A stretch of DNA of 64,000 nucleotides from Ruminococcus sp. Lineage in GTDB: Bacteria; Bacillota; Clostridia; Oscillospirales; Ruminococcaceae. Made by a program: the position numbers and the translations under genes. The stretch is from contig SVNQ01000006.1 in assembly GCA_015066865.1 (NCBI GenBank), positions 6,895 through 70,894 of the forward strand. Direction: 5' to 3'. The first letter of the stretch is position 1, and every line of letters starts with the position of its first letter. This document shows positions 47,646 to 48,025 of the stretch, in pieces. Below the pieces are notes generated by a model, which did no database searches, had not been told where the DNA came from, and worked only from the letters and a program-made list of their open reading frames with translations.

Positions 47646-47665
47646 GTTAGCCTTAGCTAACTATA
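47646..47665. promoter_or_regulatory. Copy 1 of a shared 20-nt palindromic leader motif (upstream of the DUF3793 gene)
   Basis: Plus strand GTTAGCCTTAGCTAACTATA. The minus strand reads TATAGTTAGCTAAGGCTAAC, ending 4 nt before TAGGAGGAG. Confidence 0.55.
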
Positions 47666-47706
47666 TGCTTTAAAATATGGCGCATATGCGCTATTCCCAC
47701 ATATTA

Positions 47707-47988
47707 TTATTGACAATACTGTTCCAATACACTTTTCAACGCGCTGACACTCGCATTGTGAATCTTCGCAACAGGAATCGCATGCTTTGCGGATTTACGA
47801 TTCACACTATTCACCATTTTGTGTGAACAAGTATTTGTAAATACCACCATTAAATCGGGATTTCCAAGCTTACTCTCAAAGTCCGCCGGCATCTGTGTAA
47901 ACACCTTCGCTTTACAATGGAAGGCTTTGCAAATCTCTTTATATCTTGTCGCCATACGGTCGTTTCCGCCAATAACTACAATACTCAT
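47707..47988 (-). CDS. DUF2325-like protein of unknown function
   Basis: 93 aa, 'IVVIGGNDRM...MVVFTNTCSHKM' (Rossmann or receiver-like beta-alpha pattern). The family call is from memory. ATG at 47988 lies 5 nt after GGAGGAG. Confidence 0.6.
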   Translation of the reverse strand: MSIVVIGGNDRMATRYKEICKAFHCKAKVFTQMPADFESKLGNPDLMVVFTNTCSHKMVNSVNRKSAKHAIPVAKIHNASVSALKSVLEQYCQ

Positions 47989-48005
47989 TTCCACTCCTCC
48001 TTACA

Positions 48006-48025
48006 GTTAGCGTTAACTAACTATA
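48006..48025. promoter_or_regulatory. Copy 2 of the shared 20-nt palindromic leader motif (upstream of the DUF2325 gene)
   Basis: Plus strand GTTAGCGTTAACTAACTATA. The minus strand reads TATAGTTAGTTAACGCTAAC, ending 4 nt before TAAGGAGGAG. 17 of 20 positions match copy 1. Confidence 0.55.

Follow-up and report, generated by a model that had tools for sequence, protein, structure and literature searches.

The iron box recognized by the repressors DtxR and IdeR consists of two pentamers 1 nt apart within a 19-bp site, to which two dimers bind. Fur binds a box of AT-rich sequence in a 7-1-7 repeat arrangement, and the motif reported here is contrasted with it by that description only. For Oscillospiraceae, Ruminococcus, and other gut Clostridia, the common assumption is that iron regulation depends on Fur; to our knowledge, it is essentially unstudied in these groups. 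The enterobacterial MntR box reads AACATAGC-N4-GCTATGTT (PMC1698941), and the haloarchaeal TroR motif reads TTTAGGC-NNN-CCTAAA (PMC10783522). Flavodoxin is a low-iron stand-in for ferredoxin and typically serves under iron limitation (PMC13390469). A literature search, with RegPrecise and archaeal DtxR regulons outside its scope, returned no description of the motif or regulon reported below, nor of DtxR in Ruminococcaceae or Clostridia.

We analyzed a 64-kb stretch of DNA (the window) in which two palindromes that resemble the DtxR/IdeR and MntR boxes, and differ from both, precede adjacent genes for a DUF2325 and a DUF3793 protein. From comparisons across relatives, we assign a probability of about 0.72 to the reading that both palindromes are DNA operators of a DtxR/MntR-type metal-sensing repressor, probably iron-dependent, which would control a DUF2325-DUF3793-flavodoxin operon.

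Two palindromic sites in one operon

Both copies of the motif were read on the minus strand. Behind copy A (TATAGTTAGTTAACGCTAAC, 48025-48006) come tgta, then the Shine-Dalgarno sequence AGGAGGAG (48001-47994), and then the start codon (ATG, 47988) of the DUF2325 gene. Behind copy B (TATAGTTAGCTAAGGCTAAC, 47665-47646) come cgat, then the same Shine-Dalgarno sequence AGGAGGAG (47641-47634), and then the start codon (ATG, 47630) of the DUF3793 gene. The two copies are identical at 18 of 20 positions on recount; a previous description of this DNA from its letters (the sequence-only reading) had given 17. The GTTAG-N6-CTAAC dyad and the 4-nt distance to each Shine-Dalgarno sequence that it described agree with the coordinates, and both copies have the form TATAGTTAG-N6-CTAAC. 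A search of the window for TATAGTTAG-N6-CTAAC with up to two mismatches returned copies A and B and the reverse reading of copy A only. The chance expectation for this search is 0.08 matches per window, and three matches were reached in none of 100 shuffles. For GTTAG-N6-CTAAC with up to one mismatch, the whole 64 kb held nothing besides copies A and B; the sequence-only reading had also reported no further copies.

The core of copy A, the putative operator O1 (GTTAGTTAACGCTAAC on the minus strand, 48006-48021), lies just downstream of a sigma-70-type promoter on the minus strand (48029-48057). This promoter consists of TTGACA (48057-48052), a 17-nt spacer, and TAAACT (48034-48029) with a TG before the -10 hexamer; it matches the consensus at 10 of 12 positions and is of the extended -10 type. 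From the end of the promoter, it is 3 nt to the 20-mer and 7 nt to the GTTAG core. Since the core begins 7 nt past the -10 hexamer, O1 covers the likely transcription start. The 3-nt spacing had been recognized before and is correct, but it had been attributed to the second copy, whereas the copy concerned is the one before DUF2325.

The core of copy B, the putative operator O2 (GTTAGCTAAGGCTAAC on the minus strand, 47646-47661), is internal to the operon and has no recognizable promoter of its own. Upstream of O2, the promoter score peaks at 7 (scale up to 13), a level that random positions also reach, and a separate promoter for copy B was rejected on that basis. TATAGT was also considered as a -10 box for copy B and rejected, as no -35 box fits and the TATA flank, which had been taken as part of the motif, is not conserved across relatives.

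Three genes on the minus strand follow the promoter. The first (47707-47988, ATG at 47988) encodes a DUF2325 protein of 93 aa (Pfam PF10087, E 2.7e-32), the second (47058-47630) a DUF3793 protein of 190 aa (PF12672, E 1.9e-54), and the last (46636-47046) a flavodoxin of 136 aa (Flavodoxin_1, E 5e-17). Terminator prediction placed an intrinsic terminator, with a 15-bp stem and then a T-rich tail, on the same strand at 46587-46620. Because this strong terminator follows the flavodoxin gene, we take DUF2325-DUF3793-flavodoxin as the transcription unit. A flavodoxin gene follows DUF3793 in 39 of 80 related loci. Between the first two genes, the 12-bp palindrome pointed out by the sequence-only reading was located as GCGCATATGCGC at 47691-47680. 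Together with the CATATTTT that follows, it forms a weak terminator-like hairpin and T-run on the minus strand (47672-47691); 10 nt separate the end of the T-run from the core of O2. A DUF3793 protein identical to the one in the window is encoded on contig JAZSBM010000037.1 of GCA_045602435.1, which source databases label a Ruminococcus sp. metagenome-assembled genome.

On the divergent side of the operon are genes for a CcdA/DsbD-type membrane protein and a TlpA-like thioredoxin (Pfam). On the plus strand, 48000-48027 reads CTTACA-16-TATAAT, which matches the consensus at 10 of 12 positions and is directed at these ccdA/tlpA-like genes (48158-49428); the O1 core is exactly its 16-nt spacer. 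By eye, a weaker version of this arrangement is present in the closest relative, L001. O1 might thus also control the divergent ccdA/tlpA-like operon.

Conservation of the motif in relatives

To assemble related loci, a DUF3793 profile was scanned with one genome taken per species, which gave 80 loci and 465 kb. This set spans Oscillospiraceae, Ruminococcus, Intestinimonas, Pseudoflavonifractor, Agathobaculum, Anaerotignum, Eubacterium, and others. The exact GTTAG-N6-CTAAC occurs 143 times in the 465 kb around the DUF3793 genes of these 80 species, while palindromes made from every permutation of the half-site occur 0-2 times in the same sequence. Spacers of 2-11 nt were counted in this set, and enrichment was confined to 6 nt, the other lengths (2-5 and 7-11 nt) occurring 0-5 times. 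The conserved unit in the relatives' sites is R-GTTAG-Y-N4-R-CTAAC-Y.

For 78 of the 80 loci, enough upstream sequence was available. Within 200 nt upstream of DUF3793, an exact site is present in 50 of these 78 and a one-mismatch site in 18 more (68/78 altogether), and two or more exact sites were found in 22 loci of the set. Loci of cultured species with one exact site or more include those of Pseudoflavonifractor capillosus ATCC 29799 (L071), Eubacterium callanderi (L052), and Ruminococcus sp. YE71 (L044). Absence from orthologues, or random scatter over the genome, had been named beforehand as outcomes that would speak against a functional motif; the presence of the site at 68 of 78 orthologues is neither. 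A repeat or mobile element was judged unlikely, the motif being found at orthologous positions in many genera. The core lies 13-20 nt from the start codon in 54 of 148 site-gene pairs, and many others lie at 30-150 nt. The fixed register to the ribosome-binding site described in the sequence-only reading is therefore common but not universal. Adjacency to the Shine-Dalgarno sequence looks like an outcome of compact leaders and not like a requirement.

One archaeal DUF3793 locus, on a Candidatus Methanoplasma contig (L057), does not carry the bacterial motif. About 450 nt upstream, at 2544-2559 of this locus, is TTTAGGCTATCCTAAA, which resembles the haloarchaeal TroR motif TTTAGGC-NNN-CCTAAA.

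Genes downstream of the sites

The genes directly downstream, counted over site-gene pairs, are DUF3793 (67), DUF2325 (25), two FeoA families (15 and 4), FeoB (8), and a ZIP transporter (2). Metal-homeostasis genes are found among the predicted targets, namely those for FeoA, FeoB, the ZIP transporter, and flavodoxin. In a second set of loci, chosen through a regulator gene and described below, sites also precede DUF3793, DUF2325, flavodoxin, FeoB, and a pyruvate formate-lyase-like gene (recognized by eye). The theme of the gene set behind the motif is metal, and specifically iron.

ZIP-family transporter genes adjoin the sites at L032 1834 and L042 1985. In L161, L174, and L175, genes for small HMA-domain proteins lie downstream of the regulator gene. 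The pyruvate formate-lyase-like gene (L149 3528) encodes 750 aa; pyruvate formate-lyase can stand in for pyruvate:ferredoxin oxidoreductase without a need for iron.

DUF2325 is found without DUF3793 in L161 (180-461), L167 (3403-3690), L138, and L160 (the latter two on the minus strand), and sites precede each of these genes. It opens a DUF2325-feoA-feoA-feoB-regulator cluster, while the L167 copy is directly upstream of the regulator gene. These settings suggest that DUF2325 works in connection with Feo transport or with the regulator.

In the literature, DUF2325 and DUF3793 receive passing mentions only, and no sequence relatives of either were found in the PDB. The AlphaFold model of the DUF3793 protein, of moderate confidence (pLDDT 78), gave no significant fold match in the PDB (best E 0.1). 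The DUF3793 protein of the window (47058-47630) carries the invariant residues H16, C26, C61, C63, H120, C169, and C174. DUF3793 may have a new fold that binds a metal or cofactor.

A DtxR/MntR-type candidate regulator

In 8 of the 80 DUF3793 loci, a protein of 119-128 aa with the Pfam domains Fe_dep_repress and Fe_dep_repr_C is encoded adjoining the sites. The usual place of its gene is between a divergent feoAB operon and DUF3793. An independent set was obtained by scanning metagenome contigs with a profile of the regulator alone, which gave 80 loci and 388 kb. These contain 42 exact sites, against 0-2 for the controls, spread over 20 of the 80 loci; most are located in the divergent intergenic region between feoA and the regulator gene. 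An exact site within 3 kb of the regulator gene is absent in 60 of the 80 regulator-centered loci.

The window itself contains no DtxR-family gene detectable by tblastn with seven regulator sequences at E < 0.1, and the regulator is therefore inferred from relatives. The contigs of three regulator homologues were checked, and all are from assemblies other than GCA_045602435.1.

The solved structure nearest to the regulator profile is that of B. subtilis MntR (E 1e-25), followed by DtxR, IdeR, SloR, and ScaR. The pattern H...C-x-x-E-H is present in six of seven linked regulators, and we take it to correspond to Cys102/Glu105/His106 of the DtxR iron site. MntR has Glu where the DtxR and IdeR iron sensors have Cys.

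A variant of the regulator, the L014 type, is common in the Ruminococcus clade, to which the window belongs (203 homologues). It does not have the residues that align with Met10, Cys102, Glu105, and His106 of DtxR, or with the metal ligands of MntR; examples are L014 1910-2281, L161 4001-4372, L167 4001-4384, and proteins P0121-P0240. This ligand-less variant is found inside feo operons that the motif would control, or behind three tandem sites. In L161 and L172, it is the last gene of feoA-feoA-feoB operons with sites before feoA and feoB. In L167, three tandem exact sites precede the regulator gene, beside a DUF2325 gene with sites of its own. Sites directly upstream of the regulator gene, the tandem triplet of L167 included, would fit autoregulation.

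Proposed model and the internal site

In the model that we prefer, a homodimeric, two-domain regulator of the DtxR/MntR family, about 120 aa in size, would be encoded elsewhere in the genome. When loaded with metal, most likely Fe2+, it would bind R-GTTAG-Y-N4-R-CTAAC-Y. A repressor bound to O1, at the transcription start of the TTGACA-17-TAAACT promoter, would stand in the way of RNA polymerase. At O2 there is no promoter to shut off, so that its role is not simple promoter occlusion; it may be a second, internal lock on DUF3793 and flavodoxin, acting as a roadblock or through cooperation with O1. When iron is low, the repressor would come off the DNA, and DUF2325, DUF3793, and flavodoxin would be expressed along with feoAB uptake. 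Flavodoxin would then take over from the iron-rich ferredoxin.

The hairpin and T-run before O2 have counterparts in relatives, where they are clearer, are at the same place, and end 8-11 nt before the core. Most DUF3793-proximal sites have a hairpin and T-run before them, and the T-run ends at this distance in 24 of 46 cases. A strict terminator scan returned a terminator-like element in 10 of the 46, all of them 8-10 nt before the core, versus 27 of 920 random positions. At internal sites, positions -16 to -10 have a T frequency of 0.57-0.76, in many cases behind a GC-rich hairpin, and the internal sites with a preceding T-run carry no promoter of their own (L001-L080, upstream of DUF3793). 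Sites at feoA-feoB junctions (L003, L044, L060, and L095) mostly have the same T-run placement, as judged by eye. Species without DUF2325 keep the order promoter, O1, hairpin/T-run, O2, Shine-Dalgarno sequence, and DUF3793; in these, the distance between O1 and O2 is roughly 50-58 bp in most loci and 82 bp in one.

Two further readings, which we consider unlikely when taken jointly, would build on these arrangements. The first is roadblock-assisted termination at O2: metal-loaded repressor on O2 would halt RNA polymerase while the active site of the enzyme is over the T-run, which the 8-11 nt spacing would fit, and a leaky terminator would become an efficient one. Inside the operon, this would place DUF3793 and flavodoxin under iron-dependent control on top of the control of the promoter at O1, and the same terminator-operator module recurs between feoA and feoB. 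The second is that the L014-type regulator senses iron via a partner protein, which might apply because the canonical metal ligands have been lost in the regulator of this clade. DUF2325 would be a candidate partner protein for iron sensing, since it travels with the regulator and the feo genes.

Alternative metals and binding factors

A repressor of the same DtxR/MntR family at these operators that senses manganese or another metal, and not iron, is quite unlikely. The core of the regulon, feoAB plus flavodoxin, is the classical iron-limitation pair, and six of seven linked regulators have Cys in C-x-x-E-H and not the Glu of MntR. Manganese or another metal would agree with the MntR proteins being the nearest structural relatives by sequence, with the "Mn-dependent" label that source databases give to homologues, with the MntR-like geometry of the operator, with the sites before the ZIP transporter, and with the HMA-domain and P-type ATPase genes that adjoin some regulator genes.

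The sites could also be DNA operators bound by a different, unlinked regulator, with the DtxR-family protein merely a member of the regulon. No second DNA-binding family recurs among the 80 loci, which speaks against this explanation, as does the geometry of the sites, which is that of the MntR-type box bound within the same protein family. Co-location is all that connects the regulator with the motif, 60 of the 80 regulator loci have no nearby site, and the clade-specific regulator has no metal ligands, all of which another binding protein would accommodate; the sites immediately before the regulator gene, three of them in tandem in L167, fit autoregulation instead. We rate this explanation as very unlikely.

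DNA operator versus RNA hairpin

The arms of the motif are palindromic, and conservation alone cannot separate recognition as DNA from recognition as RNA. The position of the sites relative to promoters and the pattern of substitutions bear on the choice. The modal offset of the core from the -10 hexamer is exactly 7 nt, seen in 39 cases with O1 among them; the offset is 8-11 nt in 33 further cases. In several species, the whole stretch between the -35 and -10 boxes is taken up by the site, whose CTAAC contributes to the -10 box as TAACNT; a site in this position would not be transcribed.

The predicted hairpins of the two copies have folding energies of -5.8 and -7.3 kcal/mol (z about -1.4). 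The Shine-Dalgarno sequence, including that of the DUF2325 gene (47994-48001), is unpaired in the minimum-energy and centroid folds. A scan of 46500-48400 against Rfam with E up to 10 returned snoRNA noise only.

Mirrored positions in the spacer and flanks are paired in 73.1% of instances, versus 72.5% in shuffles. For the five extension pairs, the covariation is 0.120 versus 0.109 in shuffles, a value reached by 56 of 500 shuffles, and position 6 forms 64 Watson-Crick pairs with position 11 versus 57.9 expected. The comparison across Clostridia proposed in the sequence-only reading, in which compensatory changes would mark an RNA stem, thus shows none in the spacer and flanks beyond the shuffles. 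The five core pairs are invariant, and this invariance follows from selecting exact cores. In the one-mismatch sites, the pair is broken in 67 of 104; the 17 mirrored compensatory pairs, judged by their coordinates, include none upstream of regulon genes.

An RNA hairpin GUUAGC-N4-GCUAAC in the 5' leader that controls access to the Shine-Dalgarno sequence or binds an RNA-binding protein, of which the first had been offered in the sequence-only reading, is highly improbable: both copies would be transcribed, each 4 nt before a Shine-Dalgarno sequence, the cores at 13-20 nt from the start codon suit such a role, and the 7-nt offset from the -10 hexamer would put the hairpin at the very 5' end of the mRNA, but the folds are weak and leave the Shine-Dalgarno sequence free, the spacer and flanks are without covariation or excess pairing, most single mismatches break a pair while the compensatory pairs lie away from regulon genes, Rfam gives no match, many sites are 30-150 nt off the start codon, and some are in untranscribed promoter spacers or divergent intergenic regions. 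The other suggestion of that reading, a repressor operator used twice, is supported by the sites at 68 of 78 orthologues, the invariant arms, the strict 6-nt spacer, the 7-nt phase after the -10 hexamer, and the co-occurrence with the regulator and feoAB.

Implications for iron limitation in gut Clostridia

The regulatory code that we offer for iron limitation in Oscillospiraceae, Ruminococcus, and other gut Clostridia pairs R-GTTAG-Y-N4-R-CTAAC-Y with a small DtxR/MntR-type repressor. For DUF2325 and DUF3793, it provides a first functional context. Since both are predicted to be regulated and transcribed together with flavodoxin and feoAB, they probably take part in iron acquisition or in replacing ferredoxin by flavodoxin. 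As it stands, the motif can serve for predicting iron regulons in metagenome-assembled genomes. What could lift the finding above a routine metalloregulator operator and regulon is the terminator-operator module, together with the regulator variant that has no metal ligands.

Comparison with known systems

The predicted regulon resembles the Fur regulons of Clostridia, such as that of Clostridioides difficile Fur (PMC6311696), in releasing flavodoxin and feo genes from repression when iron is low; the regulator family and the box are different. TroR (PMC10783522) is likewise an iron regulator of the DtxR family with a TTAG-type palindromic half-site, and it has tandem sites at iron-uptake promoters, one of which is sufficient for repression. 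The half-site and spacing of TroR differ from those found here, and its setting is that of archaeal promoters.

Like the MntR box, the motif is a perfect inverted repeat with the same half-site spacing, and its commonest form, GTTAGC-N4-GCTAAC, has TAGC-N4-GCTA in common with that box. The protein predicted to bind it is, like MntR, a two-domain member of the DtxR family without an SH3 domain. Both kinds of site are located at the promoters of metal-uptake genes, and autoregulation is predicted in some genomes. The half-site is GTTAG, whereas that of the MntR box is CATAG, and the targets are feoAB, flavodoxin, and the DUF genes in place of mntH. The predicted metal is iron, and the regulator has about 120 aa compared to 142-155 aa in MntR.

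The DtxR/IdeR iron box of Corynebacterium and Mycobacterium, TTAGGTTAGCCTAACCTAA, contains the same GTTAG and CTAAC pentamers. The classical 19-bp form, TTAGGTTAG-C-CTAACCTAA, was ruled out for the sites reported here by their 6-nt spacer, and GTTAG-N1-CTAAC occurs 0 times in the regulator-centered set. In contrast to DtxR and IdeR, the spacer is strictly 6 nt and the regulator is without the third, SH3-like domain. As in DtxR and IdeR, the linked regulators share Cys-x-x-Glu-His, and the iron box is the site of an iron-dependent repressor that overlaps the promoters of iron-uptake genes, as is predicted here.
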